Shown: positions 375-20,224 of the stretch, in pieces
Layout of the letters: each line of letters begins with the position of its first letter
Numbering within the stretch: the first letter of the stretch is position 1
Source: an uncultured Rivularia sp.
Lineage (GTDB): Bacteria > Cyanobacteriota > Cyanobacteriia > Cyanobacteriales > Nostocaceae
Assembly: GCA_963665115.1 (NCBI GenBank)
Contig: OY762007.1
Span: 6,272,001-6,336,000 of the forward strand
Length of the DNA stretch: 64,000 nucleotides
Direction of reading: 5' to 3'
Notes under the pieces: model-generated
What the model saw: only the letters and a program-made list of their open reading frames with translations
Databases searched by the model: none
Told to the model about the DNA's origin: nothing
Position numbers and translations under genes: made by a program

Positions 375-436
375 AATTCACCTCCGTGGCATATAAAATG
401 ATTTCTGAATTTATTTTTATTTATAGAAAATAAATT

Positions 437-485
437 TGAGAAACTTGTGAGGTGGTTTTATCTCGATATGCTCACAAGTTCCTCA
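437..485. promoter_or_regulatory. Divergent pair of CTCACA-box sites (437-451 minus, 471-485 plus) for the CBS gene and pflB
   Basis: CTCACAAGTTTCTCA and CTCACAAGTTCCTCA, each followed 11 nt later by TATAAA or TACAAC. Confidence 0.75.
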
Positions 486-532
486 TCTTTTTTATTTACA
501 ACGGAATTGTAGAAGAATGCAGGAGTAAGTAT

Positions 533-564
533 AATTCGTAATTCGTAATTCGTAATTCGTAATT
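533..564. repeat. STRR heptamer tandem repeat (AATTCGT)n
   Basis: About 4.5 tandem copies. Confidence 0.9.
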
Positions 565-568
565 AGGT

Positions 569-698
569 TAAGTAGGTGGGTGGGAAAATTTATAACTATG
601 TCATTGCGAGTGGAACGGAGTGAAACGAAGCAATCACAAGCACTTCAATAGTTTTACATTCTGTTACATAGTTTTGTTTATTCTAGCCTACCTACTTA
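569..698. mobile_element. MITE-like interspersed repeat in the pflB leader
   Basis: Terminal inverted repeats TAAGTAGGT...ACCTACTTA. The internal GTCATTGCGAGTGGAACG segment recurs, inverted, near 22975-23006. Confidence 0.65.
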
Positions 699-880
699 CA
701 AGCGTCCGATTGAGGACGAGTTATAAACAACTTTTTTAATTAACCGTCCTCTTTTTGAATGCAGGAAGCCGCACATTTTGCTTTTCCAGAAACCCTGGGT
801 ATCGTCGCAATGAGAAAATGTGCATCTGTATAAATTTGACTTATTACTCGGCAATTAAACACTTAGATACCAGAGTCAAA

Positions 881-3110
881 ATGATGGAACAATGGAATGG
901 GTTTCAAACTGGCAAGTGGATGAAGGAAATCAATGTACGTGACTTTATCCAAAAAAACTATAATCCTTACACGGGAGACGATTCTTTTTTAACAGGTGCA
1001 ACCAAAAAAACTCAAACTTTGTGGAATCAGGTAAAAACTCTGATGGAAACAGAGCGGGAAAAAGAAATTTTAGATGTTGATACAGAAGTTGTTTCGACAA
1101 TTACTTCCCATCAACCGGGCTATATTAACCGTGAATTAGAGCAAATTGTCGGTTTACAAACCGATAAACCTCTCAAACGCGCTATTATGGCTTTTGGCGG
1201 TATTCGAGTCGTGAAATCTTCTTTATCAGCTTATGGGTACAAACTAAATCTACAGACAGAAGAGATTTTCACTAAATATCGCAAAAGCCATAACGACGGG
1301 GTTTTTGATGCTTATACCAGCGAAATGCGGTTAGCACGACACTCCGGTATTATCACGGGTTTGCCCGATGCTTATGGTAGAGGTAGAATCATTGGCGATT
1401 ATCGTCGAGTCGCTTTGTACGGTGTTGATAGGCTAATTGACGATAAAAAAGAGCAGCTCGAATCTTTAGAAGTAGATGCAATAGAATCCACTGTAATTCA
1501 ACTCCGGGAAGAAATAAACGAGCAAATAAAAGCTTTGTTCGAGCTTAAGGAAATGGCTGTTAGCTACGGTTTTAATCTTAGTCTTCCTGCTAGCAATGCT
1601 CAAGAAGCAGTACAGTGGCTTTACTTTGGTTATTTAGCAGCAGTCAAAGAACAAAATGGTGCTGCAATGTCTTTAGGAAGAATTTCAACTTTCTTGGATA
1701 TCTATTTTGAACGAGATTTGCAGCAAGGTAAGGTAACAGAAACACAGTTGCAAGAATTCATCGACCATTTTGTAATGAAATTGCGGATGGTGCGTTTCTT
1801 GCGAAACCCCAGAATACAACCAATTATTCTCCGGAGATCCCACTTGGGTAACAGAATGTATCGGTGGTATGGGTGAAGACGGTAGAACTCTTGTGACCAA
1901 AAATAGCTTCCGTATCCTCAATACTCTGTATAATTTGGGAGCAGCACCAGAGCCGAATTTAACTGTACTATGGTCGGAAAGATTGCCAAAAGCTTTCAAG
2001 GAATTTTGTACAAATGTTTCTATCCATACCAGTTCAATTCAGTATGAAAACGATGACTTGATGCGTCCGTATTGGGGTGATGATTACGGAATTGCTTGCT
2101 GTGTATCTGCAATGCGAATTGGTAAGCAAATGCAATTCTTTGGCGCACGGGTTAACCTTGCCAAATGTTTGCTATATGCTATCAATGGCGGTAAAGATGA
2201 AAAATCCGGCGAGCAAATCGCACCAGCTTTTGCACCAATTACCTCAGAATATCTAGACTACGACGAGGTAATCCAAAGATTTGACTTGATGGTGGATTGG
2301 TTAGCAAAAACCTACATCAATATGCTTAACGTCATCCACTATATGCATGATAAATACTGCTACGAACGCATTGAAATGGCGTTACACGACCGCGATGTGT
2401 TCCGGACAATGGCTTGCGGTATGGCTGGTTTATCAGTAGTTGCGGATGCGTTAGCGGCTATTAAATACGCCAAAGTCAAAGTATTGCGCGACGAAACAGG
2501 ACTTGCTGTTGATTATAAAATAGAAGGCGATTTTCCTAAATATGGTAACAACGATGACCGCGCCGATGATATTGCTGCGGGCTTAATTACCGATTTTATG
2601 AACAAACTGCGCCAGCATAAAACCTATCGCAATGCTTTACCAACTCAGTCAATATTAACCATTACCTCAAACGTCGTTTACGGTAAGAAAACAGGTAGTA
2701 CCCCAGACGGGAGAAAAGCTGGAGAACCCTTTGCACCGGGAGCGAACCCCATGCACGGAAGAGATACGAAAGGGGCGATCGCCTCTCTTGCGTCGGTAGC
2801 CAAACTTCCTTACGAATACTCCCAAGACGGTATTTCCAATACTTTCTCTATTGTGCCTAGCGCACTGGGTAAAATTCCAGAAGACAGAATTAACAACTTA
2901 GTGGGAATGCTCGACGGATATTTCCACGATGGAGGACATCATATCAACGTCAATGTTCTAAATCGAGAAATGTTATTAGATGCAATGGAACATCCCGAAG
3001 AATATCCGCAGTTAACTATCAGGGTTTCTGGTTATGCAGTCAATTTCATTAAATTAACCCGAGAACAGCAGCTTGACGTTGTGAAACGGACATTCCACGA
3101 ACGGATGTAA
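881..3110 (+). CDS. pflB: Pyruvate formate-lyase, split by a +1 frameshift near 1803
   Basis: [17 protein letters not shown], active-site IACCVS and C-terminal glycyl-radical [10 protein letters not shown]. Removing one A at GCGAAACCCC restores RTPEY and joins the two ORFs. Confidence 0.95.
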
Positions 3111-3122
3111 ACGCACAAATTA

Positions 3123-3149
3123 TGTAGAGACGTAGCAGTGCTACGTCTC
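3123..3149. repeat. REP-like palindrome TGTAGAGACGTAGCAnTGCTACGTCT (also 5235-5260, 33281-33306, 35297-35323; variant 55621-55646)
   Basis: Near-identical palindromic copies in intergenic regions. Confidence 0.85.
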
Positions 3150-3192
3150 CCTAATCTAGGCATTCACCCAATTATTAATAATTAAAATTATC

Positions 3193-4155
3193 ATGAAAAT
3201 TAAACAACAACACCTCGAAGCTTACCTACAATTAGCTCAACAATTGCTAATTTGTCCTCACGGTGAAGAATGGACATTATTAGAACGCAACGAACAATTG
3301 GTTACTCCTGAGTTTGTAAAAATACTCGAACATCTTGCAGTGCAACTGGCAGGAGAAGGAAAAGCAGAAGCATCCAAATATTTACACCATTGGTCAAAAC
3401 AAATCAGTCACCTATTTGAACAAGCAGTTCATCACCAAAGTAGTGACGAAAAATCCCAAGCTTATCTGCAACTTGTTCAAGCATTGTTAGATTGTCCTAG
3501 CGGTTCGGAAGTAGATATTTTGGCAGCAAACGAAAACTTAATTGATGCGAGTTTAGTCAAAATGATGAAACAAGTCGCGGCTCAAATGGCTAAACGTGAT
3601 GAAGAAGAAGCCGCTCGTTTTTTGAGCAATTTAGCTGCTGAAATTGGTCGCAACTTAGTGCCAGTTGATAACTATAAAGCCAATTTACAGAAAGATGCTT
3701 CTCTGGCTGATTTAGATAAAAACAATAGCTTTGTCAACTTTGAAAAATTTAACCAGCCTTTGGCAATTCCCAAAGAAAAACCAGAAAATGGGATACCACA
3801 AGAAACTACTACACCAAAACCACAAGTAGATGATTCGACGAAGCAGTGGATTGATGAAAGTCTTGCAGAAATAGCAGAATCATTGAAAAATCTTGAAGAC
3901 ATTGTATTTTCAAGACTGCAACCCTCAAATCCACTTTGGTACATGGATATATTAGAACGCGCTCAAACTAATGGTTGGATACTTACTACCGAAGAAGTAG
4001 AAGATTTGATTGGAGTAAAACCTAGATGTGAAGCGGGTAAAAATTCTTATCAACGCGGCTGCTGGGTGTTTGTGAAAGCAGGTAAGATGGGTTCTCAAAC
4101 AGGTTGGAGGGTGATGAAGGAAGAAGTTGAGATGCCAGGGGAAGTATTGGGATAA
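3193..4155 (+). CDS. Hypothetical protein with a duplicated N-terminal helical repeat
   Basis: 320-aa ORF; the repeat AYLQL.Q.LL.CP.G.E..(I/L)L..NE.L occurs twice; directly downstream of pflB. Confidence 0.8.
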   Translation: MKIKQQHLEAYLQLAQQLLICPHGEEWTLLERNEQLVTPEFVKILEHLAVQLAGEGKAEASKYLHHWSKQISHLFEQAVHHQSSDEKSQAYLQLVQALLDCPSGSEVDILAANENLIDASLVKMMKQVAAQMAKRDEEEAARFLSNLAAEIGRNLVPVDNYKANLQKDASLADLDKNNSFVNFEKFNQPLAIPKEKPENGIPQETTTPKPQVDDSTKQWIDESLAEIAESLKNLEDIVFSRLQPSNPLWYMDILERAQTNGWILTTEEVEDLIGVKPRCEAGKNSYQRGCWVFVKAGKMGSQTGWRVMKEEVEMPGEVLG

Positions 4156-4343
4156 TCTACAACAGCCTTCTGTGGGTTCTGGTTCCCAGGCTGAGCCTGG
4201 GAACGCCGGTTCTAGAGGCTCTGCGTCGGGTTATAAGTGGTGGAATATATTAGATAAACGAGTATCAAAGTGCGACTGACTAAAAGCCAATCGCACCAAC
4301 AATTCATTCATAAGCAAACACCAAACTAAACAACTCATCCTGA

Positions 4344-4856
4344 CTAGAATCTATAACCAACTCCTCCTTGAAGGCTAACAGCATCAGCAGAGCTATTTTC
4401 ATAAGCATCGATACCCCATTTCGCATCACCATAAACGATAACGCGATCGCTAACTTCGGATTCTGCACCAAGAGTAATTACAGCAGCATTTCTGTTACCC
4501 AGAGGGGTGTTGTCACCTTCGTCTGTAATCCAGGAATAACCAGCACCGAAGTAAAGGTTAGTATTGTCGGCAATTGGTGTATCAATAGTTAGCATTGGCA
4601 TAATAGCCGCAGCATCACCACCAAATAGAACTGCACCCCTCGCAGACATAGATGCTTCTGGGATTGCATAACGTCCTTGAACGTTACCACCGAATACTTC
4701 ACCATCGTTTCCTTGTCCGCCGCTAGTAACACCTCCTGCAATACCAACACCGATATAACTACCATCCATACCCATCGGTTGAGCAGCAGCAATTCCGCCT
4801 GAAAGAATAACGGAAGTTGCAGCAAATAGGCTAATTGCTACATTAAAAAATCTCAT
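4344..4856 (-). CDS. Small outer-membrane beta-barrel-like protein
   Basis: Signal peptide, alternating beta-strand pattern, C-terminal GVGYRF; RBS GGGAGG. Confidence 0.75.
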   Translation of the reverse strand: MRFFNVAISLFAATSVILSGGIAAAQPMGMDGSYIGVGIAGGVTSGGQGNDGEVFGGNVQGRYAIPEASMSARGAVLFGGDAAAIMPMLTIDTPIADNTNLYFGAGYSWITDEGDNTPLGNRNAAVITLGAESEVSDRVIVYGDAKWGIDAYENSSADAVSLQGGVGYRF

Positions 4857-5008
4857 ACAACCCTCCCGATATAAACTAAGTTAATTCTTAGCTATATCAA
4901 TTCAAAGATTTATGTTGATGTAGGATTTATCTACATTTTCTAGATTCGATAGAAAGGATTATTTGACAACTTCTACTTTCTATCTACTTTTAAGATAACG
5001 AAAAAACT

Positions 5009-5118
5009 TGAAGAACTCGTGAGTATACAAATATTAATCATTAAAAATAACTTCTTATGATAAAGAAAATAAAAAATTGCTTTCTAATTCTTCTTTTTAA
5101 TTGCTCACAACTTCCTCA
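5009..5118. promoter_or_regulatory. Two CTCACA-box promoters (5009-5023 minus; 5104-5118 plus)
   Basis: Boxes followed 11 nt later by TATCTT and TATAAC. Confidence 0.7.
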
Positions 5119-5283
5119 CATTTTTTGCCTATAACTCAAAATGAAAAAGCTGTGTTTCCGACTTCCACATTAGAGAGGTTCAAAGTGGGATGAGTGTTTA
5201 AAAGTTTAGTACCATACTTACTAAAATAAATATATGTAGAGACGTAGCACTGCTACGTCTTTATAATTTAGTCATTGAAACCA

Positions 5284-5509
5284 CTAATCCTCAGCCCATT
5301 CTCCATTTCCCAAAAGGGTCTATAATCCAATCTCTAGGTAAATAATCATTTCTTTCTAACTCGCATTCAAAACAGATCCATTCACGAGGAGAGATAAATC
5401 TACATGCATGGCAGATTGGTTCATTGCAGCGAAGTTTTCCTCTATCAACCAGTTGTCTAATTTCATCTCTGATAGTTTCAATGTTATATGCTTCTATTGT
5501 TGGTAACAT
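5284..5509 (-). CDS. DUF4327-like small cyanobacterial protein, +1 frameshift near 5316
   Basis: IRDEIRQLVDRG...PI...REW...ECELERNDYL.RD.I.D; removing one C on the coding strand gives the typical ending LLGNGEWAED*. Confidence 0.7.
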
Positions 5510-5581
5510 AATTCACTTCCTCTGTATTTCAAAACCTTTATAGTAAACTGATTTCTTTAATTTCATCCTAAAAATTAAATG

Positions 5582-5699
5582 TGAAGAACTTGTGGAGTCT
5601 TAATTAAACTATGTTCAATAATTTGTAAGTGGTATTTTGCAGTAGGTATTGAATATAGCAAAATTAACTAAGGATAATTACTTCTTCACAACTTCCTCA
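5582..5699. promoter_or_regulatory. Two CTCACA-box promoters (5582-5596 minus; 5685-5699 plus)
   Basis: Boxes followed 11 nt later by TAGGAT and TATAAC. Confidence 0.7.
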
Positions 5700-5908
5700 A
5701 ACTTGTAATTTATAACTATAAGTATAAAGATGCTGAGTTAAATTTGATTCAGTACTCTGCTGTAAATAGCAGGTTGAACTTGAAATTATACTTAATAGCA
5801 AAGTCATAGATTCACAATAACATTTGTCAAATTCTCAGTCTATATTTGCTTACAGATACATCCACTATATAAAAATCTGTAGAAGTGATATTGAAAGGAA
5901 GGTGTATT

Positions 5909-7126
5909 ATGACACTCACAAAAAATAAAAATCCACATCTGAAATATAGAAAAACTATCTTTTTTCTGTTATTCGCAACATTTTTAGTTGCGGGTAGTTC
6001 GTTTGGATGGGTTAAATTTCAACAGGAACAAGAAAGAAAAATTATACTAGCTCAGAGTTTACTAATCAAAGAATGCAAAGAGCAAACTGAAGCTGATAAT
6101 TTTTCGGAGACTAGCAAAAATGTAAATCAAGCAGTCAAATTATTGAACGGAATTCCAAAATTACCTGGCTCGACATATCCAGAAGCTCAAAAAGAACTGA
6201 CGAAATTTTCTGGATGCGTCAAAGCTGTTAATGCTAAGAGTAGTTTCCTGAATGCTGGAGACTTGAGTAAGAAAGCTTTTTCTGTAAATAATCAAACCGT
6301 TCTTCCTTTGGAAGAATGGCAAAAAATTCGTTTGAATTTAGAAACAGCAATTGTTGAGATTCAAAACATTCCAACTGATGTTGATGTATCAAAACAGGCT
6401 CAATCCGAACTCACCAAATACCAAAATCAGTTAAAACTCATCAATCAAAAAACCCAAAACGAACAAATTGCTGTTAACGCTTTGAATCGTGCTAGAAAGT
6501 TAAAGTTACAGGCAGAAAATATTGTTCGCTTTAATAACTTAAAGTCTCTGTCGAAAGCAGAATTACAAGTCAAAAATGCCATTCAGCTTATTAACAATCT
6601 TCCAGAGAAAACAACCATATATGAAACCAAAAAAGATTATTTGGAAGGCTATCAAAATCTACTGAATAACATTCAATATAAGATGGCTGTCATTCGGTTA
6701 AATGATTTAGTAGATAGTTTCCGCAAGTTTGCTAAAAAGCTGCATCGTAATATGGGATATATCGAATATTCCGAACGTCTTGAGAATCTTAAGTTAAATT
6801 TCGAGAATACTTTCAAACAACCTTTTGTTATCGAAAATTCCACTACGAAATCTTTAGAGAAGGTACTATCATACTACGATGATGCGTTAATTATTAAACG
6901 CTATTGCTATGAGGGAAACTGTATTCACTCTACTTCGGCTCTATTAGTCAGATATAGATGGAGAGTGTTATGGCTACCTACTTCTTTTAAATTGAATGGT
7001 GTACCAATTACAGAAAAATACGTTTTACGCGCAACCCCTAACATTTTGAAGAGGAAATATGTCAAAGTGAATGACGCTTTGCAAAGGATTTTTCATCAAG
7101 CTGAAGAAGAAATTAAGCAAATATAA
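5909..7126 (+). CDS. Membrane-anchored helical hypothetical protein
   Basis: Long ORF, ATG 5909 after GGAAGGTG, single N-terminal hydrophobic segment. Confidence 0.75.
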   Translation: MTLTKNKNPHLKYRKTIFFLLFATFLVAGSSFGWVKFQQEQERKIILAQSLLIKECKEQTEADNFSETSKNVNQAVKLLNGIPKLPGSTYPEAQKELTKFSGCVKAVNAKSSFLNAGDLSKKAFSVNNQTVLPLEEWQKIRLNLETAIVEIQNIPTDVDVSKQAQSELTKYQNQLKLINQKTQNEQIAVNALNRARKLKLQAENIVRFNNLKSLSKAELQVKNAIQLINNLPEKTTIYETKKDYLEGYQNLLNNIQYKMAVIRLNDLVDSFRKFAKKLHRNMGYIEYSERLENLKLNFENTFKQPFVIENSTTKSLEKVLSYYDDALIIKRYCYEGNCIHSTSALLVRYRWRVLWLPTSFKLNGVPITEKYVLRATPNILKRKYVKVNDALQRIFHQAEEEIKQI

Positions 7127-7141
7127 TAACCCTTGTAAATG

Positions 7142-7181
7142 AAAAATTGCGGATAATTGAGATTAATTATCCGCAATTTTC
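7142..7181. terminator. Bidirectional hairpin terminator between convergent genes
   Basis: AAAATTGCGGATAATT-loop-AATTATCCGCAATTTT perfect stem. Confidence 0.7.
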
Positions 7182-7344
7182 AATCATATTAGTTTACAGC
7201 TAAAAAGCAACCGTTACTCTCTAGAAGAATACCGATTGCTTTTGGTAATTAATGGATTCATATGCCTGGATAATTGTTTAAATTTGATGTATCAGTCTGT
7301 ATTATCCAAGCATTTGCTAACATTCACAGTTAGACAGGATATTT

Positions 7345-7878
7345 CTAATGGTATAGCTTACTTAGAGCGTGCCAAGTCCGAGGACCCACAATTCCATCTT
7401 GAATTAAAGCCATGTCTAATTGGAATTTTCTCACTGCTACTTCTGTGACTGGACCGAAATCACCGTCTATATCAAAGCTATAGTAACCGTGCAATGATAA
7501 GGTTCTTTGAATCATTCTTACATACTTGCCAGTACTACCACGACTAAGAACCGGGATAGGTGGAACCGGAGGAGCGCCGCTATAAAGTGCTTTCCAAGTT
7601 AGCGAACCGACAATACCATCTTCTTCCAGGAAAACACGATGTTGATATGCTTTGACAGCCCATTCAACATATTCGCTGAAGATACCGTCTATAACATCGT
7701 AGTAAAGATCCCAATATCTCAGCAGTTTTTGCAGTTCTTCAACTGCTTCTCCTGTATCCCCTTTTCTCAAAATCGGCTTATTCAACTTCATTGTTGTTTC
7801 CGACATCGAAAAGGTAGGAAGGTTATTTACATCAATAAGATGGTTGTTTTCCAGTTCGTTTCTGTCTTGAAGTTGCAT
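7345..7878 (-). CDS. Peptidoglycan-binding protein with two PG_binding_1 domains
   Basis: Twice L..G..G..V..(L/I)Q..L...DG.F...AV...Q.....DGIVG..TW.AL; probable start 7878 after RBS GAGG. Confidence 0.85.
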   Translation of the reverse strand: MQLQDRNELENNHLIDVNNLPTFSMSETTMKLNKPILRKGDTGEAVEELQKLLRYWDLYYDVIDGIFSEYVEWAVKAYQHRVFLEEDGIVGSLTWKALYSGAPPVPPIPVLSRGSTGKYVRMIQRTLSLHGYYSFDIDGDFGPVTEVAVRKFQLDMALIQDGIVGPRTWHALSKLYH

Positions 7879-8041
7879 AATTTGTTTCCTCTTAATATAT
7901 TTACGAGGGTTTATACTGCGATACAGTTGAGTCATATATGAGTTAATCTAATATATTAAATATTTTAATTAACTCATTCTAGATAAAACATTTAAACCCT
8001 CTAACTAATGTTCTCTATACTTTTAATTTAAACGAAGATTG

Positions 8042-8056
8042 TGAGGAAGTTGTGAG
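8042..8056 (-). promoter_or_regulatory. CTCACA-box upstream of the peptidoglycan-binding gene
   Basis: CTCACAACTTCCTCA, 11 nt, TAAATT. Confidence 0.7.
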
Positions 8057-8511: not shown

Positions 8512-8543
8512 CTCACAAAATCCTCAATATTTTTGAGTATTTT
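8512..8543 (+). promoter_or_regulatory. CTCACA-box and -10 upstream of the P-type ATPase
   Basis: CTCACAAAATCCTCA, 11 nt, TATTTT. Confidence 0.65.
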
Positions 8544-8604
8544 TAAAATATATATACTTATCATTCTTAAATCCAGTTATTCATTGAGAATATAGTAATG
8601 GACT

Positions 8605-11367
8605 ATGTACAAAAGTAAAATGAATATCGGCAAAAAAAAGTTTATAAAAAAAAGTATTAATTCCAAACAAATTGTAACTAAAATTGAAAATCAAAAAATA
8701 GAAGATTGGCATACTATCGAAGCTGATTCTATTATCGAATCCTTGAATAGTTCTAAAACTCTGGGATTATCTAGCGAATCAGCTTCAGAAAAACTTCTGC
8801 GATACGGACAAAACCTTTTACCTGAGTCTGCAACCCGTTCGGAGTTAAGTATTTTTATCGAGCAATTTAAGTCACCACCAGTAGCTTTACTAACTGCTGC
8901 TGCGGTGGTTTCAACCGCAATGGGTGGCTGGGTTGATGCTTTGGTAATTATGGGGGTTGTAGGTATCAATGCAGTTATTGGCTATTTTACAGAAAGCCAA
9001 TCGGAAAAAATTATTCACTCTCTGAAAAAACATGACCGCCCATCTACTTTAGTTCTTAGAAATGGTAGTATAACTCAGGTAAACACTGAAAATATTGTTC
9101 CTGGAGATATTTTAGTTCTAAAGCCCGGTAGCTATATTGCAGCGGATGCCAGGTTAATTAAAACAGAAAATCTCAGCGTCGATGAATCGGCTTTAACTGG
9201 TGAAAGTATACCAGTGACTAAAGCAACTCAATCCCTTCACGGTGAAGATATTCCTCTTGCCGACCGGATAAATATGGTATACAAAGGCACCTTAGTGACT
9301 GGCGGACAAGGTATTGCTGTGGTGACTGCAACAGGTCAATTTACCGAACTAGGACAAATCCAACAATTGGTAGAAGAAGCTAGCGCTACAGATACTCCTC
9401 TAGCAAAACAACTCGATAAAGTTGGTAGTCAATTGGTTTTCCTTAGTAGCGGTATCTGCGTTGTTGTTTTTCTGATTGGACTACTGCGGGGCTACCCTTG
9501 GCTGACAATGCTGACGACATCTATATCCTTAGCTGTGGCAGCAGTTCCTGAAGGTTTATTGGCTGTAGCAACTACAACCCTGGCTTTAGGTATTCGAGAT
9601 ATGCGACGACATAACGTCCTTATCCGCAGCTTGAACGCAGTAGAAGCTTTGGGTTCGGTACAGAAGATTTGTTTGGATAAAACCGGCACAATTACGGAAA
9701 ACAGTATGTCAGTAGTTGAAATACATACTGATAGCCGAGTAATTCAAGTAAATAACGGTAAGTTTGTGAATGGTGAAAAAACAATTTATCTCAGTAATTG
9801 CGACGAATTTCTGCAATTGATTCGAGTATCGGTTCTTTGCAATGAAAGTAATGTGTTGCCACACTCAGATGGTGAATATATCGTTAATGGTTCTGCAACT
9901 GAAAATGCTTTAATTTATATGGCAATTGATGCCGGAATTGATGTTATTAGTCTCAGAGAAGATTATCCACTCACATATATTAATCAGCGCTCGGAAAATC
10001 GTAATATTATGAGTACGCTTCATGGTACTTCTGATGACCGTATATTAATTGCAGTCAAGGGAACACCAACAGAAATTTTACACCTGTGCAACCGGCAGAT
10101 CAAAGCAGGACAAGTAATTCCCCTTACAGAAGATGATAAATTAGCAATCGAAGTAGAAAATAAGCGAATGGCCGATAAAGCATTGCGCGTATTAGCAGCA
10201 GCTTATACCTATACCAACGAGTCGGAAAACAGCGAATATACTGAACAAAATCTTATCTGGTTGGGTTTAATTGCCATGACAGACCCTATTAGGAAAGGAG
10301 TCGAAGATTTAGTGAGTCAATTTCATCAAGCTGGAATTGATACCGTTATGATTACGGGGGATCAAACTGCTACCGCTTTCGCAATTGCTAAAGAATTGGA
10401 ACTAGCCAACCACAATCAACTGCAAATCCTCGATTCTACGGATATTAAAAACATTGAATCTGAAGAAAAAACAGCACTTTTTGACAAAGTAAATGTTTTT
10501 GCCAGAATTAGTCCTGCTAATAAGCTGCAAATTGTTCAAGCTTTGCAGTCAGCCGGACGAATTGTATCTATGACTGGCGATGGTATAAATGATGCCCCTG
10601 CTCTCAAAGCTGCGGATATAGGTGTGGCAATGGGAAATAGCGGTACTGATGCAGCCCGTGAAGTTGCCGATATCATTATTGCTGACGACAACTTGGAAAC
10701 TATGATTATTGCTGTGAGTCGGGGAAGAACTATTTACAACAACATTAGAAAATCGCTGCATTTTCTGCTTTCTACCAACCTCAGCGAAATTATGGTGATG
10801 CTAGCAGCGACGACTTTTGGTTTAGGACAACCTTTAAATGCGATACAGTTGCTATGGTTAAATTTAGTTACAGATATCTTTCCCGGTTTGGCACTTGCAT
10901 TAGAACCAAGCGAACCAGATGTTTTAAGTAAACCACCCCGCAATCCTGAAGAACCAATTATCAAAACATCAGACTTTGGTAATTTTATTGTTGAGTCTGG
11001 AAGCATAACTTTGAGTAGTTTAGCGGCTTATGGATACGGTATCAGCCAATATGGTATAGGTTTGCAAGCAAGTACCATTGCTTTTATGAGTCTGACACTT
11101 GGACAACTGCTTCATGCTTTGAGTTGTCGCTCCGATAAATACACCATATTTGATATTAGTAAACTACCGCAAAATCAATATTTGAATATTGCTCTTATTG
11201 GTTCCATTGGATTACAACTACTGTCAATTGGGGTTCCCCAACTGCGAACGCTATTAAGTCTGACGACCATTAGTATTGCGGATAGTATTGTAGTTAGTAG
11301 TAGTGCAATTTTACCATTGATATTTAATGAAATTAGAAAAAAAATAATTGTAGGTAAAAATGTTTGA
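8605..11367 (+). CDS. Cation-transporting P-type ATPase (type II, Ca2+-like)
   Basis: LTGES, PEGL, DKTGT, MITGD and TGDGINDAPALK motifs. Confidence 0.92.
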   Translation: MYKSKMNIGKKKFIKKSINSKQIVTKIENQKIEDWHTIEADSIIESLNSSKTLGLSSESASEKLLRYGQNLLPESATRSELSIFIEQFKSPPVALLTAAAVVSTAMGGWVDALVIMGVVGINAVIGYFTESQSEKIIHSLKKHDRPSTLVLRNGSITQVNTENIVPGDILVLKPGSYIAADARLIKTENLSVDESALTGESIPVTKATQSLHGEDIPLADRINMVYKGTLVTGGQGIAVVTATGQFTELGQIQQLVEEASATDTPLAKQLDKVGSQLVFLSSGICVVVFLIGLLRGYPWLTMLTTSISLAVAAVPEGLLAVATTTLALGIRDMRRHNVLIRSLNAVEALGSVQKICLDKTGTITENSMSVVEIHTDSRVIQVNNGKFVNGEKTIYLSNCDEFLQLIRVSVLCNESNVLPHSDGEYIVNGSATENALIYMAIDAGIDVISLREDYPLTYINQRSENRNIMSTLHGTSDDRILIAVKGTPTEILHLCNRQIKAGQVIPLTEDDKLAIEVENKRMADKALRVLAAAYTYTNESENSEYTEQNLIWLGLIAMTDPIRKGVEDLVSQFHQAGIDTVMITGDQTATAFAIAKELELANHNQLQILDSTDIKNIESEEKTALFDKVNVFARISPANKLQIVQALQSAGRIVSMTGDGINDAPALKAADIGVAMGNSGTDAAREVADIIIADDNLETMIIAVSRGRTIYNNIRKSLHFLLSTNLSEIMVMLAATTFGLGQPLNAIQLLWLNLVTDIFPGLALALEPSEPDVLSKPPRNPEEPIIKTSDFGNFIVESGSITLSSLAAYGYGISQYGIGLQASTIAFMSLTLGQLLHALSCRSDKYTIFDISKLPQNQYLNIALIGSIGLQLLSIGVPQLRTLLSLTTISIADSIVVSSSAILPLIFNEIRKKIIVGKNV

Positions 11368-11521
11368 AATTTTAAATAAGTATTACCAAAAAAACAGATT
11401 TAGATTTTTGGTTAATTATCTCAAAGAGCAAATTAATTAATAGATATTAGATTATTGTGATAAATGCAAAATAATTTACCAGCATTTTACAGACACAGCA
11501 GAAAAATATCAGATGTAACGA

Positions 11522-12343: not shown

Positions 12344-12684
12344 CTTCTACCTATCTTTTTTCTATTATTATTGAATAATATAATTAAACAAATAAGATGT
12401 TTGAGCAATTTTTATAATCCGCTTCGGAACCAAATCTAATCGCTAAAAAGCAGAATTATCTCCCTACCAGAAAATTAGCGAAAAAAAACTGCTTTCCGCA
12501 CCCTAAACTCTCACAAATTTTTACTGTATTTTTGTAGAATACTCCCGCTAGCTTAATACTTTGTATCCTTATCTTGATTGAGGATAAAAGTTTTTTTAGC
12601 TGAATTTATAGCTGAGAATCTATAAAAAATGAAGTAATTATGCTCTTTTCAGTGCGGAATGTGGGGCATAGAATTAATTAATTT

Positions 12685-13164
12685 TTATTTGACAACTAAC
12701 ACCGAACAACAAGCGTGGTGAATAACATAACTGCTGACACTACCTAGCAAAACTTCTGCTATCGCACTATGTCCTCTACTACCTAATACAATTAAATCAG
12801 CACCCCAAGATTGAGCAAACTCGCAGATTTTCTTCCCTGGCTCTCCAAGCTCATAGGTATATGATGCGGGAATTTTATGCATTCGTGCTTGCTGAGTGTA
12901 ATATTCCGACCATTCACTGACTTTTTGGATTTCTTGTTTTAATTCCTGTTGATAGTTTTTGTGTAAATTTCCATATATATTGATATCACCAATAGTACCA
13001 ATACCACCGATAGATGATACTTCTCGAACCATCATATTGCTATTTATACAATGCAATAATTTGATTTCGTTATCTTTTTCTTTTACTAAATCTAACGCTG
13101 TTTGAAAGACTTTTCCTGTTTGGTTAGATTTATCTAGAGCAACTAAAATCTTGCGATTAATCAT
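12685..13164 (-). CDS. Universal stress protein
   Basis: KILVALD; ADLIVLGSRG...LLGSVSSYVIHHA..SVLVV. Confidence 0.92.
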   Translation of the reverse strand: MINRKILVALDKSNQTGKVFQTALDLVKEKDNEIKLLHCINSNMMVREVSSIGGIGTIGDINIYGNLHKNYQQELKQEIQKVSEWSEYYTQQARMHKIPASYTYELGEPGKKICEFAQSWGADLIVLGSRGHSAIAEVLLGSVSSYVIHHACCSVLVVK

Positions 13165-13214
13165 GATTTCTCCTCACAGTAAATATTCAATACTTTTACT
13201 TTATAGATATAATT

Positions 13215-13280
13215 TGAAGAAAATGTGAGGATACAAATTCAAAGCTTCCTCACAAGTTCCTCAAATTATTCCCGTATAAA
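13215..13280. promoter_or_regulatory. Divergent CTCACA-box pair (13215-13229 minus, 13249-13263 plus) for usp and pflA-adhE
   Basis: Same 19-nt gap between boxes as the 437/471 pair; -10 elements TAAAGT and TATAAA 11 nt downstream. Confidence 0.75.
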
Positions 13281-13334
13281 TCAAAGTGAAGCGAATAAAA
13301 AGCTTCAATCTCTTGCGTGCTATGGGTAATAGCT

Positions 13335-14087
13335 ATGTTACATCCAGTATCTGAAGTTGCTACATTCGGTTACATCCACTCAGTTGAAACTTGTGGTACG
13401 GTGGATGGTCCTGGTATTCGTTTTATAATTTTTACTACAGGTTGTCCCCTACGTTGTTTGTATTGCAGTAATCCCGACTGTCGCTATCTGGAACATGGAA
13501 AACAGGTAACAGTTGATGAATTGATTGCTGAAATTAAAAAATATACTTCTTACATGAAAGCATCGGGTGGAGGTGTAACAATTAGCGGTGGTGAACCTTT
13601 ATTCCAACCAGAATTTGTTAGAGAAATTTTTCGACGCTGTAAAGAATTAGGAATACATACGGCTTTAGATACATCTGGATTTTGTAATTTAGAAACCGCA
13701 AAATCTGTATTAGAATTTGTAGATTTAGTATTGCTTGATATTAAATCATTTGAACCAGCTACTTACACCAAAGTCACGGGAGTTGATATCAAACCAACGC
13801 TAATTCTTGCTAAATACTTGAGTGATATTAATAAGCCAGCCTGGATTCGATTTGTATTGGTACCTGACTTAACAGATGATACGGACAATATAACCGGATT
13901 AGCCGATTTTATTTCTACCCTTAAAAATATTCAAAGAGTTGAAGTATTACCATTTCATAAAATGGGTGAATACAAATGGGAAGAACTAGGTTACGAATAC
14001 AAATTAAAAGAAACTCCAAGCCCCACCTCGGAACAGGTAGAAAAAGTATTAAATATCTTCCGCAGCAAAGGTATTTTCACTCTTTAA
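13335..14087 (+). CDS. pflA: Pyruvate formate-lyase activating enzyme (radical SAM)
   Basis: IHSVETCGTVDGPGIRF, CPLRCLYC (CxxxCxxC), SGGEP, LPFHKMGEYKW. Confidence 0.95.
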   Translation: MLHPVSEVATFGYIHSVETCGTVDGPGIRFIIFTTGCPLRCLYCSNPDCRYLEHGKQVTVDELIAEIKKYTSYMKASGGGVTISGGEPLFQPEFVREIFRRCKELGIHTALDTSGFCNLETAKSVLEFVDLVLLDIKSFEPATYTKVTGVDIKPTLILAKYLSDINKPAWIRFVLVPDLTDDTDNITGLADFISTLKNIQRVEVLPFHKMGEYKWEELGYEYKLKETPSPTSEQVEKVLNIFRSKGIFTL

Positions 14088-14131
14088 TTAAAACTTTGCC
14101 AAACTCTGCATTTCAATAAAGGAGTAAAATT

Positions 14132-16837
14132 ATGCAAGTTACCAATATTCAAGAATTAGAGTTACTAGTAGAAAACGTCAAAGCAGCACAAGAAAAATAC
14201 GCTACATATTCTCAAGAGAAAGTTGATTTTATTTTTAAACACGCAGCATTAGCAGCCAATAATCAAAGAATACCTTTAGCAAAATTGGCTGTTTCTGAAA
14301 CAGAAATGGGTATTATAGAAGATAAAGTAATTAAAAACCACTTTGCATCGGAATATATTTATAACAAATATAAGCATGAAAAAACCTGCGGTCTTATCGA
14401 AGAAGATAGAAGTTTTGGTATTCAAAAAATAGCCGAACCAGTAGGAATTATTGCTGGAATTGTTCCCGTAACTAACCCTACATCTACAACTATTTTTAAA
14501 GCATTGATAGCTCTCAAAACCCGCAATGGAATTATTCTTTCTCCCCATCCTAAAGCTAAAAAATGCACCATAGAAGCAGTAAAAATTATCTTAGAAGCAG
14601 CAGTTTCTGCTGGTGCGCCAGAAAATATTATCGGTTGGATTGACGAACCAACGGTAGAATTATCCCAAGCATTAATGCAGCATTCCGATATCAAACTAAT
14701 TTTAGCAACTGGCGGACCGGGAATGGTACATGCTGCTTATTCTTCGGGACATCCATCATTAGGTGTAGGAGCAGGAAATACTCCTGCGGTAATTGACAAA
14801 TCGGCTGATATTCAAACTGCTGTCAGTTCGATTTTGTTGAGTAAAACTTTTGATAATGGAATGATTTGTGCTTCGGAACAATCTGTAATTATTGTTGATG
14901 ATATTTACGAACAAGTTAAACAGGAATTTATGTGTCGGGGTGCATATTTTCTCAACGATACAGAAAAAAGCCAACTGGGTAATGTAATTTTAAAGGAAGG
15001 AAGATTAAATCCAGCAATTGTCGGACAGTCGGTAGAAAAGATAGCTCAATTAGCAGGATTTAAACTCAAAAGTGAAGTTTCTGGATGTGGAAAAGATACT
15101 TATTGTCCGCTACCAAGTAGCTATAAAACTTTAATTGCTGAAGTAGAAGACATTGGTAAATCAGAACCTTTTGCTTATGAAAAATTATCGCCAATTTTAG
15201 CAATGTATCGAGCAACAAACTTTCATGAAGCAGTTGCTAAAGCCGAAAGCTTGATTGAATTTGGCGGTCCCGGACATACTGCCGTATTGTATACCAATCC
15301 AGCTAATTACGATGATATTACTTATTTCGAGAATGCAATTAAAACGGGAAGAGTTTTGATAAATACACCATCTTCTCAAGGTGCAATCGGTGATTTATAT
15401 AATTTCAAATTAGACCCATCTCTAACTTTGGGTTGTGGAACTTGGGGTGGTAATACAATATCCGATAACGTCGCACCCCATCACCTACTAAATATTAAAA
15501 CAGTATCCCAGCGTCGGGAAAATATGCTGTGGTTCCGCGTTCCCCCAAAAATTTATTTTAAATCTGGTTGTTTACCTGTAGCTTTAGGAGATTTAACTGG
15601 TAAAAAACGAGCATTTATTGTTACGGATAAACCATTGTTTGATTTAGGAATTGTCGATAGTGTCACCAAGGTTTTAGAGGAAATCGGCATCAAATACGAT
15701 ATATTCCACGAGGTTGAACCAGACCCCAATTTATCTAATGTTAAACAGGGTTTAGCATTATTAAACAATTATCAACCAGATGTAATTATTGCTATTGGTG
15801 GTGGTTCACCGATGGATGCAGCTAAAGTTATGTGGTTGATGTACGAACATCCCGAGGTGGAATTTGCTGGTTTAGCAATGCGATTTATGGATATTCGTAA
15901 GCGAGTTTATGAACTACCATCCTTGGGACAAAAAGCAATGTTAGTCGCTATTCCTACGACTTCCGGTACTGGTTCGGAGGTAACGCCATTTGCAGTTGTC
16001 ACCGACGAAAAAGCAGGAGTTAAGTATCCTTTAGCAGATTATTCCCTAACACCAAATATGGCAATTGTAGACCCAGAATTGGTTTTAAATATGCCAACAA
16101 AGTTAACTGCATACGGTGGCATTGATGCTTTAACTCATGCACTAGAATCTTATGTTTCGGTAATGGCTACTGAGTTTACCGATGGATTAGCATTACAGGC
16201 AATAGATTTACTATTTAAATACTTGCCCAGAGCCTATAAAAATGGCAAAAATGACCCCGAAGCGCGGGAAAAAGTTCATTATGCAGCAACAATTGCAGGA
16301 ATGGCATTTGCTAATGCTTTCTTAGGAGTTTGTCATTCAATGGCTCATAAATTAGGAGCAACTTTTCACGTACCCCACGGCTTAGCAAATGCGCTGATGA
16401 TTTCCCATGTAATTCGTTACAATGCTACCGATATTCCTTTCAAACAAGCTATTTTTCCACAGTACAAATATCCCCACGCCAAACAGCGTTATGGTGAAAT
16501 TACAGATTTCTTGGGATTGGGTGGAAATACCCTTGATGAAAAAATTGAAAAATTAGTGGAAGCGGTAGAAAATCTCAAGCATGAAGTTGATATTCCTTTA
16601 ACGATTAAAGAAACATTGGGAGATGATGAACAAGCTTTTTATAGTAGTTTAGAAACAATGGCAGAACAAGCATTTGATGACCAATGTACCGGAGCAAATC
16701 CCCGCTATCCGTTAATTAACGATTTGAAAGAATTGTACGTTTTAGCTTATCGCGGTTGTCGTACTGATGCGGCTTTTTATCATGTAGATGAATCGGATAA
16801 TTTGCAGTTGGAAGAAGTGAGGATGGGTAATGGGTAA
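14132..16837 (+). CDS. adhE: Bifunctional acetaldehyde-CoA/alcohol dehydrogenase
   Basis: ALDH part (SKTFDNGMICASEQ, TLGCGTWGGN) plus Fe-ADH part (GGGSPMDAAK, HSMAHK, HGLANA). Confidence 0.96.
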   Translation: MQVTNIQELELLVENVKAAQEKYATYSQEKVDFIFKHAALAANNQRIPLAKLAVSETEMGIIEDKVIKNHFASEYIYNKYKHEKTCGLIEEDRSFGIQKIAEPVGIIAGIVPVTNPTSTTIFKALIALKTRNGIILSPHPKAKKCTIEAVKIILEAAVSAGAPENIIGWIDEPTVELSQALMQHSDIKLILATGGPGMVHAAYSSGHPSLGVGAGNTPAVIDKSADIQTAVSSILLSKTFDNGMICASEQSVIIVDDIYEQVKQEFMCRGAYFLNDTEKSQLGNVILKEGRLNPAIVGQSVEKIAQLAGFKLKSEVSGCGKDTYCPLPSSYKTLIAEVEDIGKSEPFAYEKLSPILAMYRATNFHEAVAKAESLIEFGGPGHTAVLYTNPANYDDITYFENAIKTGRVLINTPSSQGAIGDLYNFKLDPSLTLGCGTWGGNTISDNVAPHHLLNIKTVSQRRENMLWFRVPPKIYFKSGCLPVALGDLTGKKRAFIVTDKPLFDLGIVDSVTKVLEEIGIKYDIFHEVEPDPNLSNVKQGLALLNNYQPDVIIAIGGGSPMDAAKVMWLMYEHPEVEFAGLAMRFMDIRKRVYELPSLGQKAMLVAIPTTSGTGSEVTPFAVVTDEKAGVKYPLADYSLTPNMAIVDPELVLNMPTKLTAYGGIDALTHALESYVSVMATEFTDGLALQAIDLLFKYLPRAYKNGKNDPEAREKVHYAATIAGMAFANAFLGVCHSMAHKLGATFHVPHGLANALMISHVIRYNATDIPFKQAIFPQYKYPHAKQRYGEITDFLGLGGNTLDEKIEKLVEAVENLKHEVDIPLTIKETLGDDEQAFYSSLETMAEQAFDDQCTGANPRYPLINDLKELYVLAYRGCRTDAAFYHVDESDNLQLEEVRMGNG

Positions 16838-16977
16838 TTGGTAATTGGTAATTGGTAATTGGTAATTGGTAATTGGTAGTTGGTAATTGGTAATGGGTAA
16901 TAGGTGATTGGTAATTAGTGATTATCAACTCTTAACTCCTAACTCTTAACTCCTAACTCCTAACTCCTAACTCCTAA
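16824..16977. repeat. Adjacent STRR arrays (GGTAATT)n and (AACTCCT)n
   Basis: About 13 and 7 heptamer copies; the first overlaps the adhE stop. Confidence 0.9.
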
Positions 16978-17015
16978 TTACTCCCTACTTCCTATTTTCA
17001 AAACAGGAGTGATTT

Positions 17016-19766
17016 ATGCAACAAACAATTAAGATAGCCTCAGACCGTGCTTATGATATTCTTCGTTCCCAACATCACCCCTTAGATGCTATTTTTACAC
17101 CTAAAAACGTTGCGGTTATCGGTGCATCTGGGAAAGAAGGTAGCGTAGGACGTACTCTGTTGTGGAATCTCGTTAGCCATCCTTTTGGGGGAACGGTTTT
17201 TCCTGTTAATCCCAAACACAATAGCATTTTGGGTATCAAAGCCTACCCAAATATTGCCGCAGTTCCAGAAGTTATTGACTTAGCAATTATTGCTACTCCC
17301 GCTACAACTGTACCTAGTGTTATTGCTGAATGCGTAGATGCGGGAGTTAAAGGTGCAATTGTGGTTTCTGCTGGGTTTCGGGAAACGGGAACTACAGGAT
17401 TAGAACTAGAGCAGCAGGTGTTAGAACAAGTTCGTCGCTCTCAAATGCGGTTAATTGGTCCTAACTGTTTGGGAATTATTAATCCCCATATTGGCTTAAA
17501 TGCGAGCTTTGCTAGTGGTATGGCACTTCCTGGTAAAGTCGGATTTATCAGTCAGAGTGGGGCATTGTGTACGGCTATTTTAGATTGGAGTTTCCGCGAA
17601 AATGTCGGATTTAGTGCTTTTATTTCCATCGGTTCCATGCTCGATGTTGATTGGGGAGATTTAATTTATTACCTCGGCGACGACCCCCATACGGAAAGTA
17701 TTGTGATTTACATGGAATCTATCGGTAATGCTCGTTCTTTTCTTTCAGCTGCGCGGGAAGTTGCTTTAACCAAACCGATTATAGTCATCAAAGCCGGACG
17801 TACTGAAATTGCAGCCAAAGCCGCAACATCCCATACAGGTGCCTTAGCGGGAAGCGACGCGGTATTTGATGCAGCCTTAAGACGCTGTGGGGTATTGCGA
17901 GTTAATCGCATTTCTGAATTATTCGATATGTCAGAGGTGTTGTCAAAACAACCCCGTCCCAAAGGTAAACGAATGACAATTATTACTAATGCTGGGGGAC
18001 CTGGGGTTTTAGCTACAGATGCGTTAATTTCTGGAGGGGGAGAACTGGCTGAGTTAACCGTTGAAACTCGCGATGCTTTGGATAAATTATTACCTGCAAA
18101 TGCTAGCTGCAATAACCCAATTGATTTATTAGGAGATGCAGATTATAAGCGTTACGAAAATGCTTTAAAAATTGTCAGTCAAGATAAAAATACTGATGCA
18201 ATTTTGGTAATTTTAACACCGCAGGCAATGACAAACCCTACCAAAATAGCAGAAGTTTTAACAGCTTGTGCCAAAAGCAATAAACCAATTTTAGCAAGTT
18301 GGATGGGTAACTCAGAAATCCAAGCTGGGGCAGAAATTCTCAATCAAGCCGCAATTTCCACGTTTCCCTATCCCGATACTGCTGCCCGAATTTTTAATTA
18401 TATGTGGCGCTATAGTTATAATTTGCGTAGTTTATACGAAACTCCAGTATTAGCTAATCCAGAAGTAGATTTTTTCCATTGTAATTTAGTTGAGAAAATC
18501 ATTGAGAAGGCACGTCGCGAAACAAGATATTTATTAACAGAAATTGAATCAAAAAAAATACTTGCAGCTTATGGAATTCCAACTGTAGAAACATATCTCG
18601 CAACAACAGTAGAATCCGCTATTCAAATAGCAGATAAAATTGGTTATCCGGTAGTAATGAAAGTTTATTCATATACCATTACCCATAAATCGGATGTGAA
18701 TGGAGTGCATTTAAATTTATGTTGCGCCGATGCTGTTAGAGAAGCATATCAAGCTATTCAAACATCGGTGACACAGAAAGTTGGTAGCAGCCATTTTGCT
18801 GGGGTGACAATTCAGCCAATGGTGAATTTAAAAAACAGCTATGAATTGATATTGGGTAGTAGTATAGATGCTCAATTTGGACAAGTTTTACTATTCGGTA
18901 CGGGAGGACAACTAGTTGAGGTATTTCAAGATAGAGCATTGGGATTACCTCCACTTAATACTACCTTGGCTCGGCGAATGATGGAACAAACTCAAATTTA
19001 CAAAGCATTAAAAGGAGTTAGAGGAAGAACATCTATTTCATTAGATAAATTAGAGCAGCTTTTAGTTCGTTTTAGTCAGTTAGTTGTAGAACAACCTGGG
19101 ATTAAGGAAATTGATATTAATCCGCTTTTAGCAAAACCAGGTATTGATGATTCATTGATAGCATTAGATGGAAGAATTGTACTGCACAATTTAGATGCGA
19201 ACATCGAAAAATTACCAAAACCTGCAATTCGTCCCTATCCAATCCAATATATCTCAACTTGGAAAATGCAAAACGGGATGGAAATTACTATACGTCCGAT
19301 TCGTCCCGAAGATGAGCCGTTAATGATTCAATTTCACCATGAATTATCACAGCAAAGCGTTTATTTTCGCTACTTTCATCTGATTAAAATTAGCCGACGT
19401 ATTGCTCACGAACGTTTAACAAGATTGTGCTTTATAGATTATGACCGAGAAATGGCTTTAGTCGCCGATTATTATAATCCTCAAACTCAAAAAAATGAAA
19501 TTTTAGCTGTTGCGAGATTAAGTAAACTACACCAAACAAATCAGGCTGAGTTTGCTTTGATAGTAGCAGATAAATATCAGTGTCAAGGAATAGGAAGCGA
19601 ATTACTAAAACGATTGTTGCAAATTGGGAAAGATGAGAAATTGAGCGAAATCAATGCAGAAATTTTGTTAGAAAATCTGGGGATGCAGCGAGTTTGTGAA
19701 AAACTAGGGTTTATTATTCAGCCTACAGATGATTGTTCTGTGGTTAAAGCTGCTATTGCTTTGTAA
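17016..19766 (+). CDS. Bifunctional acetate-CoA ligase (ADP-forming) family / GNAT acetyltransferase (Pat-like)
   Basis: CoA-binding [28 protein letters not shown]-grasp HKSDV..V, and a C-terminal GNAT (IRPIRPED...QGIG). Confidence 0.9.
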
Positions 19767-19805
19767 AAAAGTATCGTGTCATTATGCTTATCAGAATAAA
19801 ACTTC

Positions 19806-19837
19806 CTCACAAGATTCTCAAACTTATTTTTTAGATT
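19806..19837 (+). promoter_or_regulatory. CTCACA-box and -10 upstream of a small ORF
   Basis: CTCACAAGATTCTCA, 11 nt, TAGATT. Confidence 0.7.
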
Positions 19838-19883
19838 AATAATATACATTCCATATAAAGCATTTACATTGGAGGTAGCAAAG

Positions 19884-20003
19884 ATGGAATACTTTACACT
19901 AATACCATTTACAACAGATATTACATATCTAATTGTCAAACTCGCAGTACTGCTTGCGGTTCTATTAGTTTGGATGATAGTTATGACACATCCCGCTTAT
20001 TAA
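19884..20003 (+). CDS. Unannotated 39-aa single-helix membrane peptide
   Basis: MEYFTLIPFTTDITYLIVKLAVLLAVLLVWMIVMTHPAY*, with RBS GGAGG 8 nt upstream and its own motif-bearing promoter. Confidence 0.65.
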   Translation: MEYFTLIPFTTDITYLIVKLAVLLAVLLVWMIVMTHPAY

Positions 20004-20192
20004 ATCTTCATGAATGTTGCAGCATTAATTTTGACGTGAGAAGCATCTCTAAATCATCTTTGAGAAACACAAATCAAACCAGATTGCTAGAAATAAAACG
20101 AAAAATTTGCTTGATTTATAAAGGGATAGGGAGAACTAATTCAATAATCCCTATTTTTATTTTCACTACATGTAGCTGTACCCTAAATTCTC

Positions 20193-20224
20193 CTCACAAG
20201 TTTCTCATCTTATTTCTATACAAC
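20193..20224 (+). promoter_or_regulatory. CTCACA-box and -10 upstream of the orphan DevA
   Basis: CTCACAAGTTTCTCA, 11 nt, TACAAC. Confidence 0.7.

Follow-up and report, generated by a model that had tools for sequence, protein, structure and literature searches.

The window analysed here is a 64,000-nucleotide stretch of the genome of an uncultured Rivularia (G000:C1:6272001-6336000, G000 being the Rivularia genome), in which fermentation and stress genes are preceded by a short promoter-like element that we call the box. A first-pass annotation had reported twelve copies of a 15-mer in this window, and all twelve sites lie where it placed them and on the same strands. Our analysis indicates that these boxes belong to a real and conserved regulon of a known regulatory type, which is apparently unpublished. 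The features are listed below in window coordinates, with mismatches counted against the 15-mer CTCACAASTTYCTCA; boxes are named by their first position, and the island is the 83-kb cluster of boxes described further on.

437..451, minus strand: box, exact; faces a CBS-domain gene, start at 374, that extends past the edge of the window; -10-like hexamer TATAAA
471..485, plus strand: box, exact; faces pflB; -10-like hexamer TACAAC
755..3110, plus strand: pflB, pyruvate formate-lyase, in two open reading frames (ORFs), 755-1876 and 1869-3110
4344..4856, minus strand: outer-membrane beta-barrel protein, target of box 5009
5009..5023, minus strand: box, two mismatches; faces the beta-barrel gene
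5104..5118, plus strand: box, exact; hexamer TATAAC; no ORF ahead, points antisense into the DUF4327 gene
5291..5509, minus strand: DUF4327 small protein, target of box 5582
5582..5596, minus strand: box, three mismatches; faces the DUF4327 gene
5685..5699, plus strand: box, one mismatch; faces a gene at 5885-7126 whose 413-aa product has no Pfam match
7345..7935, minus strand: peptidoglycan-binding protein, target of box 8042
8042..8056, minus strand: box, exact; faces the gene of the peptidoglycan-binding protein
8512..8526, plus strand: box, two mismatches; faces a P-type cation ATPase gene, 8605-11367
12685..13164, minus strand: universal stress protein (USP), target of box 13215
13215..13229, minus strand: box, three mismatches; back to back with box 13249
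13249..13263, plus strand: box, exact; faces pflA-adhE-acd
13317..19766, plus strand: pflA (13317-14087), adhE (14132-16837) and an acetate-CoA ligase/GNAT fusion (17016-19766)
19806..19820, plus strand: box, one mismatch; faces a 39-codon hydrophobic ORF, 19884-20003, with a GGAGG ribosome-binding site
20193..20207, plus strand: box, exact, the right-most of the island; faces an ABC ATPase ORF, 20470-21048

The twelve positions hold, but the copies are less uniform than had been claimed, as only six of them match CTCACAASTTYCTCA without mismatch. The window contains eight matches with at most one mismatch where 0.01 would be expected, and none of 100 shuffles reached eight. The hexamers that begin 11 nt past the 15-mer are exactly those listed in the first-pass annotation, and all twelve start with TA. 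At any other gap from 0 to 21 nt, TA is found at no more than 4 of the 12 sites, and a complete TAnnnT hexamer is present at six. The exact copies outside the window served as an unbiased hold-out, and 11 of these 12 carry TA at gap 11. Seven more window matches with three mismatches all lack TA and are taken as chance occurrences. Eleven boxes sit at gene starts, as proposed, each facing an ORF; the exception is box 5104, which, judged from its sequence, is a candidate promoter (5104-5290) of a regulated small or antisense RNA.

The genome holds 18 exact copies of the box, 16 of which fall within 6,210,358-6,292,193 and form one 83-kb island. A matrix scan of the genome gave 32 island sites and four outliers; almost all of these sites lie between genes and point at a gene start. 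The profile of these 36 sites reads TC-CTCACAA-GTT-CCTCA-AATT, with TA at positions 27-28, T at position 32 (24 of 36 sites) and AAA at 34-36; the set was chosen by eye from the scan with the context known, and the presence of TA in 35 of the 36 is hence no unbiased test. TCA shows little or no variation across the 36 sites at positions 2-4 and 13-15, which bears out the 11-bp period proposed for the half-sites. The element shares with OmpR/PhoB-type boxes both the 11-bp direct repeat and a fixed position about 10 bp above the -10 hexamer, with no -35 element. Coverage-based transcription starts in Acaryochloris lie 51, 56 and 93 nt past the box start, compared with about 39 nt predicted. A Fischerella start-site table, which covers a subset of genes, has no box promoter among its listed genes, and the Nodularia and Anabaena supplements searched for start sites at boxes gave no match.

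The metabolic genes of the island are ppsA, pfkA, pyruvate kinase, a GH65 enzyme, pflB, pflA, adhE and acetate-CoA ligase. The island also encodes a full N-ATPase operon, three USPs, Hsp20, CBS and CBS-CP12 proteins and an AAA_33 protein, together with an Acg-family nitroreductase (NF047509), a P-type ATPase, an MBL hydrolase with rhodanese, MgtC and PsbU (gene psbU). The expectation of matches at pfl, adhE and usp was therefore borne out; that of matches at hox was borne out in relatives but not in the Rivularia genome, in which searches for hoxH and hoxU gave no match. The only match to a NiFe hydrogenase large subunit there is split into two pieces 9 kb apart (G000:C1:4216726-4226830), an arrangement that would be expected for an interrupted hupL. 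The N-ATPase operon (L002:9259-19849) is complete, with a Na+/H+ antiporter gene inside it as on the Acaryochloris plasmid pREB4, and about 2.4 kb of inserted genes separate atpG from atpA. Two of the outlier boxes mark partial duplicates of the edge of the island. A partial duplicate at L006:3839-6626 contains hsp20 with a box, ppsA fragments and a USP gene.

Within the window, the pflB frame is broken by one extra base near position 1804. This base is present in a DNA run (X8) as well, and it is absent from a relative represented in mat RNA contigs. Because the DNA run agrees with the assembly at this point, pflB is likely a real pseudogene in this strain; it is the sole pflB found in the genome, and pflA and adhE are intact. 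The RNA contigs (metatranscriptome contigs X1-X3, one sample) stem from a relative that shares these genes and is about 96% similar, and they were used solely for the pflB comparison because they give no start, strand or level. At window position 10512, in the P-type ATPase gene, the same DNA run has a 2-base insertion and one more gap relative to the assembly, which suggests a local assembly error. The ABC ATPase behind box 20193 (20274-21048) seems to have lost its N-terminus or to be frameshifted, and the 39-codon ORF at 19884-20003 is a candidate small membrane protein. Beyond the island, a non-ribosomal peptide synthetase cluster without a box occupies 41300-64000.

The box is conserved among relatives. 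An exact box with TA occurs in 44 of 401 genomes of the phylum and in 36 of 46 of the family, with no hits for reversed-pattern controls, and it is found in none of 33 genomes of one small-genome family. The genes recurrently fronted by it in relatives, named by BLAST to the Rivularia genome or from their translations, encode USPs, PpsA, a small Cys-rich protein, Hsp20, HoxW and Hox subunits; nifJ, ptox, pflA, pflB, pfkA and the DUF4327 gene recur in the same position. Acaryochloris marina has a matching island on its plasmid pREB4, where boxes between 106 and 213 kb precede psbU, hsp20, ppsA, atpD, the hoxU operon, hoxW, USP genes, ftsH and nifJ. Of the 82 ORFs of the Rivularia island, 32 match pREB4. 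N-ATPase and hox always co-occur in Acaryochloris (PMC9324425), and CBS-CP12 genes are located beside hox or pyruvate kinase (PMC6142219); the available passages of these two papers name no shared regulator for either set of neighbours.

The first-pass annotation had placed the regulator outside this DNA, which is right for the window but wrong for the island, as a likely regulator is encoded 57 kb upstream of the window. This candidate (G000:C1:6210890-6214843) lies at the left edge of the island and encodes a 1303-aa protein with the domain order REC-wHTH-Hpt-REC-REC-PAS-GAF-PAS-HisKA-HATPase, wHTH being a winged helix-turn-helix domain, with a gene for a CheY-like protein next to it. Its Pfam matches (three Response_reg, Trans_reg_C and Hpt) place it among the RcaC-type complex response regulators. 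PF00486 has 19 matches in the genome, and the regulator's is the only one inside the island. Of 18 wHTH loci, only two have boxes within 5 kb, namely the regulator and its paralogue, and both share the recognition helix EEAVRTHIKGLR; the other 16 have no box within this distance. The paralogue, at 7.444 Mb (L007:4719-6639), is split, with receiver and wHTH in separate ORFs. Around it are two boxes, a USP gene, a small Cys-rich protein and a CBS-PAS kinase, and the locus has the appearance of a decayed duplicate of the edge of the island. As no box faces the regulator's own promoter in the Rivularia genome, autoregulation is not indicated there.

The closest relatives of the regulator are found in Rivularia, Calothrix, Richelia and other Nostocales, and pREB4 carries an orthologue that is 75% identical in the wHTH domain. 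We sought orthologues with a 96-aa wHTH query; a 634-aa query was dropped, as it scored only three candidates per genome. A box is present at 65 of 80 loci around the orthologues, and TA stands at the fixed gap in 112 of 115 boxes of these loci although the matrix leaves TA unscored. In 50 of the 74 loci with enough flank, the box lies within 1 kb upstream of the regulator gene, usually facing a divergent USP gene. Across 152 genomes, all 33 with a wHTH domain at 75% identity or more have boxes, and 31 of them have at least two; among the remaining 119, 32 have at least one box and five have at least three. Two of those five, G097 and G271 with 16 boxes each, have diverged regulators with an identical helix. 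The helix check of such box-bearing exceptions covered those other than G002 (four boxes).

The recognition helix and the box also vary together. The helix has EE in 75 of 76 parsed orthologue helices, and position 5 of the box is C in 111 of 114 sites (15 of 17 on pREB4). At four plasmid loci whose regulators have an ED or EG helix, position 5 is T in 15 of 16 sites. Two further islands with T-type boxes were located by the box pattern first, and then turned out to hold ED and EG regulators.

The sensory part of the regulator offers a hint at its input. The best PDB matches of its last PAS domain are FixL and DosP (E 1e-14 to 1e-12), at about 30% identity. FixL has a proximal His and a distal Arg at its haem. 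The haem-ligand His is aligned in the regulator and is kept in 62 of 64 orthologue domains, and 64 of 68 orthologue ORFs contain a haem-like PAS, the other four being short.

Taken as a set, the boxes are best read as a candidate pho-box-type activator site of an RcaC-like phosphorelay. The earlier proposal of an OmpR/PhoB-type activator that acts in place of a -35 element and co-regulates the island is well supported by the geometry of the box, its conservation and its linkage to the wHTH gene, apart from where it placed the regulator. In the proposed mechanism, the predicted FixL-like PAS would control the fused kinase, and phosphate would be relayed His-Asp-His-Asp through the receivers and the Hpt domain, perhaps by way of the adjacent CheY-like protein too, to the N-terminal receiver. 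The 11-bp repeat could then be occupied by two wHTH domains in head-to-tail arrangement, which would recruit sigma-70 polymerase as PhoB does, the repeat standing in for a -35 element. In Nostocales, the input would most likely be a gas bound at the PAS haem, with oxygen as the first candidate and carbon or energy status as its main rival. The output would be a DosR-like programme of fermentation and dormancy comprising pfkA, pyk, ppsA, pfl/adhE/acd, the N-ATPase, USPs, Hsp20 and CBS proteins, and in relatives probably hox, hoxW, nifJ and ptox as well. We are confident, short of certainty, in the regulator and in activation through the box, while the chances that oxygen is the signal seem to us even. 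On balance, we lean towards the whole reading, in which the box is a conserved promoter element and activator site of the RcaC-like island regulator, switched on by low oxygen at the predicted haem PAS.

Several observations weigh against parts of this reading. On the side of the regulator, the draft genomes G099, G191, G351 and G361 keep two or three boxes and no such helix was found in them, locus L188 has one T-type box beside a regulator with an EEAVST helix, and the genomes behind the co-occurrence and covariation counts include kin that are not independent. The pflB gene is frameshifted in this strain. On the side of the signal, the position aligned to the distal Arg of FixL is Ser in the Rivularia regulator and Arg in most orthologues, and the Acaryochloris orthologue lacks the haem PAS, so oxygen is not a universal input. 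Expression data for Acaryochloris come from a study in which cultures were kept for 7 days under N2 in the light (PMC5295598), of which we used all 60 AM1_D01xx/D02xx rows of Table S3; the word "replicate" is absent from its main text. Of 12 genes directly behind a box, 10 are lower under N2, one is unchanged and one is higher, compared with eight falling among the other 48 listed rows, and most of the box-fronted genes fall under pure O2 too (PMC5295598). The falls under N2 therefore support co-regulation but not induction by low oxygen. The text of this study has the plasmid ATPase genes rising slightly in microoxia where its Table S3 gives atpD a log2 value of -2.15, and its psbU values disagree between Table 2 and Table S3. 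In Nostoc PCC 7120, the main tables of another study show ppsA falling 107-fold, hox 74-fold, ptox 65-fold and nifJ 42-fold 1 h after illuminated dense cultures at 3% CO2 were washed into air (PMC7699953). Low oxygen is no simple explanation of this collapse after CO2 step-down. Orthologues of these four are box-fronted in named relatives, the genomes that the scan covered. The proposed trigger of anoxia or darkness is plausible from the haem-PAS-like domain, but neither expression set shows induction by low oxygen, and the two together argue against a plain anoxia switch.

These data bear on the alternative that the same box and regulator respond to carbon or energy status, be it high CO2, acidification, AMP or a dense or spent culture, with the CBS-PAS hybrid kinase or another kinase feeding the relay, which we regard as a serious candidate, if a rather unlikely one. 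The drop of 42- to 107-fold within an hour in PCC 7120 fits it, and in the available part of the Acaryochloris data both evacuated flasks show lower levels of the box genes than the cotton-stoppered control. A CBS-PAS kinase is present in both the Rivularia island and pREB4 (42% over the CBS part), and CBS-CP12 binds AMP, according to the available passages of PMC6142219. The step-down experiment, however, changed medium and handling too. At E<=1e-45, just 7 of 46 genomes of the family have the CBS part, whose distribution does not follow that of the box, for which reason the island CBS-PAS kinase was set aside as a general sensor; the haem-like PAS, by contrast, is kept in 64 of 68 orthologues. 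The targets also include PFL, PFOR and Hox, which are oxygen-sensitive enzymes.

Other explanations dispense with the candidate regulator or with regulation altogether. A core OmpR regulator (RpaA, RpaB, SphR, ManR or CopR/Rre34) might read the box while the RcaC-like gene merely travels with it, and these proteins likewise bind direct repeats, RpaA drives night-time catabolic genes, ten family genomes keep one to three boxes without a close orthologue, and one T-variant plasmid locus additionally carries rppAB. We nevertheless find this improbable, given that no box lies within 5 kb of the other 16 wHTH loci, that the two loci of CopR/RppA type carry a TTTCAT-type repeat of their own, and that helix and box covary; RpaA and RpaB are near universal, whereas the box is patchy (0 of 33 in the small-genome family). 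Still less credit goes to the idea that an alternative sigma factor, acting with no activator, recognizes the box as its upstream element. The fixed spacing to the -10 hexamer and the conserved AAA after it would suit such a factor, and sigma-70 genes are located on pREB4 as well as 4 kb away from outlier site 701144; on the other hand, direct repeats of about 20 bp with an 11-bp period are typical of wHTH dimers, the scanned island proteins included no sigma factor, and linkage and covariation point to the wHTH gene. That the copies are a dispersed repeat or a relic of island assembly with no regulatory role is hardly credible: the Rivularia genome is rich in short intergenic repeats and has many repeat joints, but the boxes have unrelated flanks and are oriented towards genes, TA follows at a constant distance, and one set of targets is met repeatedly in lineages ranging from Nostocales to Acaryochloris.

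It is an open question how hydrogenase and fermentation genes are turned on in bacteria that produce oxygen, and another when the second, N-type ATP synthase is used. In the passages available to us, hox control is attributed to LexA and cyAbrB, and the plasmid ATPase is called possibly cryptic. With a defined box and a list of its targets, and with candidates for the regulator and for its sensor domain, both questions become directly testable. A further use of the box might be as a tight promoter part, as orthologues of its targets in PCC 7120 change 40- to 100-fold in an hour. What this analysis adds is the layout as a single 83-kb island, the comparison with the other wHTH loci of the genome as a control, the covariation of helix and box, and the two expression sets that speak against a plain anoxia switch. 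A broader proposal, which we put forward tentatively and would rate somewhat below even, is that many Nostocales possess an undescribed one-protein gas-sensing phosphorelay that runs a DosR-like regulon (hox, PFOR, PFL, N-ATPase), with regulator, box and targets moving together as an island or plasmid, swapping sensory inputs and following a one-residue/one-base code (EE with C, ED or EG with T). A literature search found no description of the box in print, with subscription journals, figures and several supplements outside its reach, and searching for the box spelled as a sequence returned only unrelated human-cell papers. No box appears in the searched passages or supplements of PMC2670836, PMC4183373, PMC5580265, PMC3610870 and PMC8064755.

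Comparison with known sites, which the first-pass annotation had suggested, sets the box apart from those of RpaB and RppA: the motifs HLR1 (KTTACAWW-N2-KTTACAWW) and RppA (AAMAWCTCYYWCCCC), both from the available part of PMC13421787, differ from all 36 sites by at least five and at least four mismatches, respectively. LexA, cyAbrB, ChlR and Hik31/Rre34 have overlapping targets or conditions in the available passages of PMC7699953, PMC2670836 and PMC5295598, which do not name the candidate regulator, and the sites given for LexA (RGTACNNNDGTWCB) and ChlR (TTMCC-N4/3-GGWAA) are unlike the box. The CopR/Rre34-type clusters of the Rivularia genome have a TTTCAT-type repeat and no box. Two CopR/RppA-type regulators are found there in metal-resistance clusters (G000:C1:4272000-4277000 and 4311000-4315000), with seven and four pattern matches, respectively, to a TTTCAT-type 11-bp box.

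With DosS/DosT-DosR of mycobacteria, the system shares a haem gas sensor, predicted in our case, and a gene list that includes USPs, Hsp20, an Acg-family nitroreductase, CBS proteins, phosphofructokinase, a P-type ATPase and an AAA_33 kinase. DosR is a NarL-type protein that binds a palindrome and DosS uses a GAF haem, both unlike the arrangement here, and the likeness is an analogy of content, not membership. FixL and DosP are the best structural matches of the last PAS, with the His ligand aligned and haem binding predicted, but the identity is about 30%, Ser replaces the distal Arg in the Rivularia protein, and the Acaryochloris orthologue lacks this PAS. PhoB of E. coli with its pho box, and likewise SphR, has in common with our system an 11-bp direct repeat in place of the -35 element, with 10 bp between the end of the 18-bp unit and the -10; it differs in half-site and helix, PhoB is a two-domain protein, and no phosphate-starvation targets are found here. 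In RfpA-RfpB-RfpC, the wHTH of RfpB is 66% identical to that of the regulator, and RfpB is likewise embedded in the cluster under its control, but its recognition helix is EDTVTAHIK and it forms a separate clade. The 24-kb far-red light photoacclimation (FaRLiP) cluster of Fischerella NIES-4106 has no box except one weak match without TA, and the RfpB-like gene of the Rivularia genome has no box scoring at least 16 within 5 kb. That gene belongs to a far-red photoacclimation-like cluster (apc, psbA, RfpB-like regulator) at G000:C1:1232000-1262400, in which a weak T-type box with TATTCT stands at 1258484 before a divergent psbA.

In the RcaE-RcaF-RcaC system, the L-box has a layout of 7+4 bp. 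Our box has another sequence, its targets are fermentation and stress genes instead of phycobiliprotein genes, and its kinase is fused to the regulator and has a haem-like PAS; among the island proteins scanned, there is no bilin photoreceptor kinase or phycobiliprotein gene such as the RcaC/L-box regulon proper would include. The two systems are alike in that a multi-domain regulator with receivers and a winged helix has a CheY-like partner encoded next to it, and in that RcaC, according to the available passages, activates from a direct-repeat promoter box (PMC8256508, PMC4390838), as the candidate regulator may do here.

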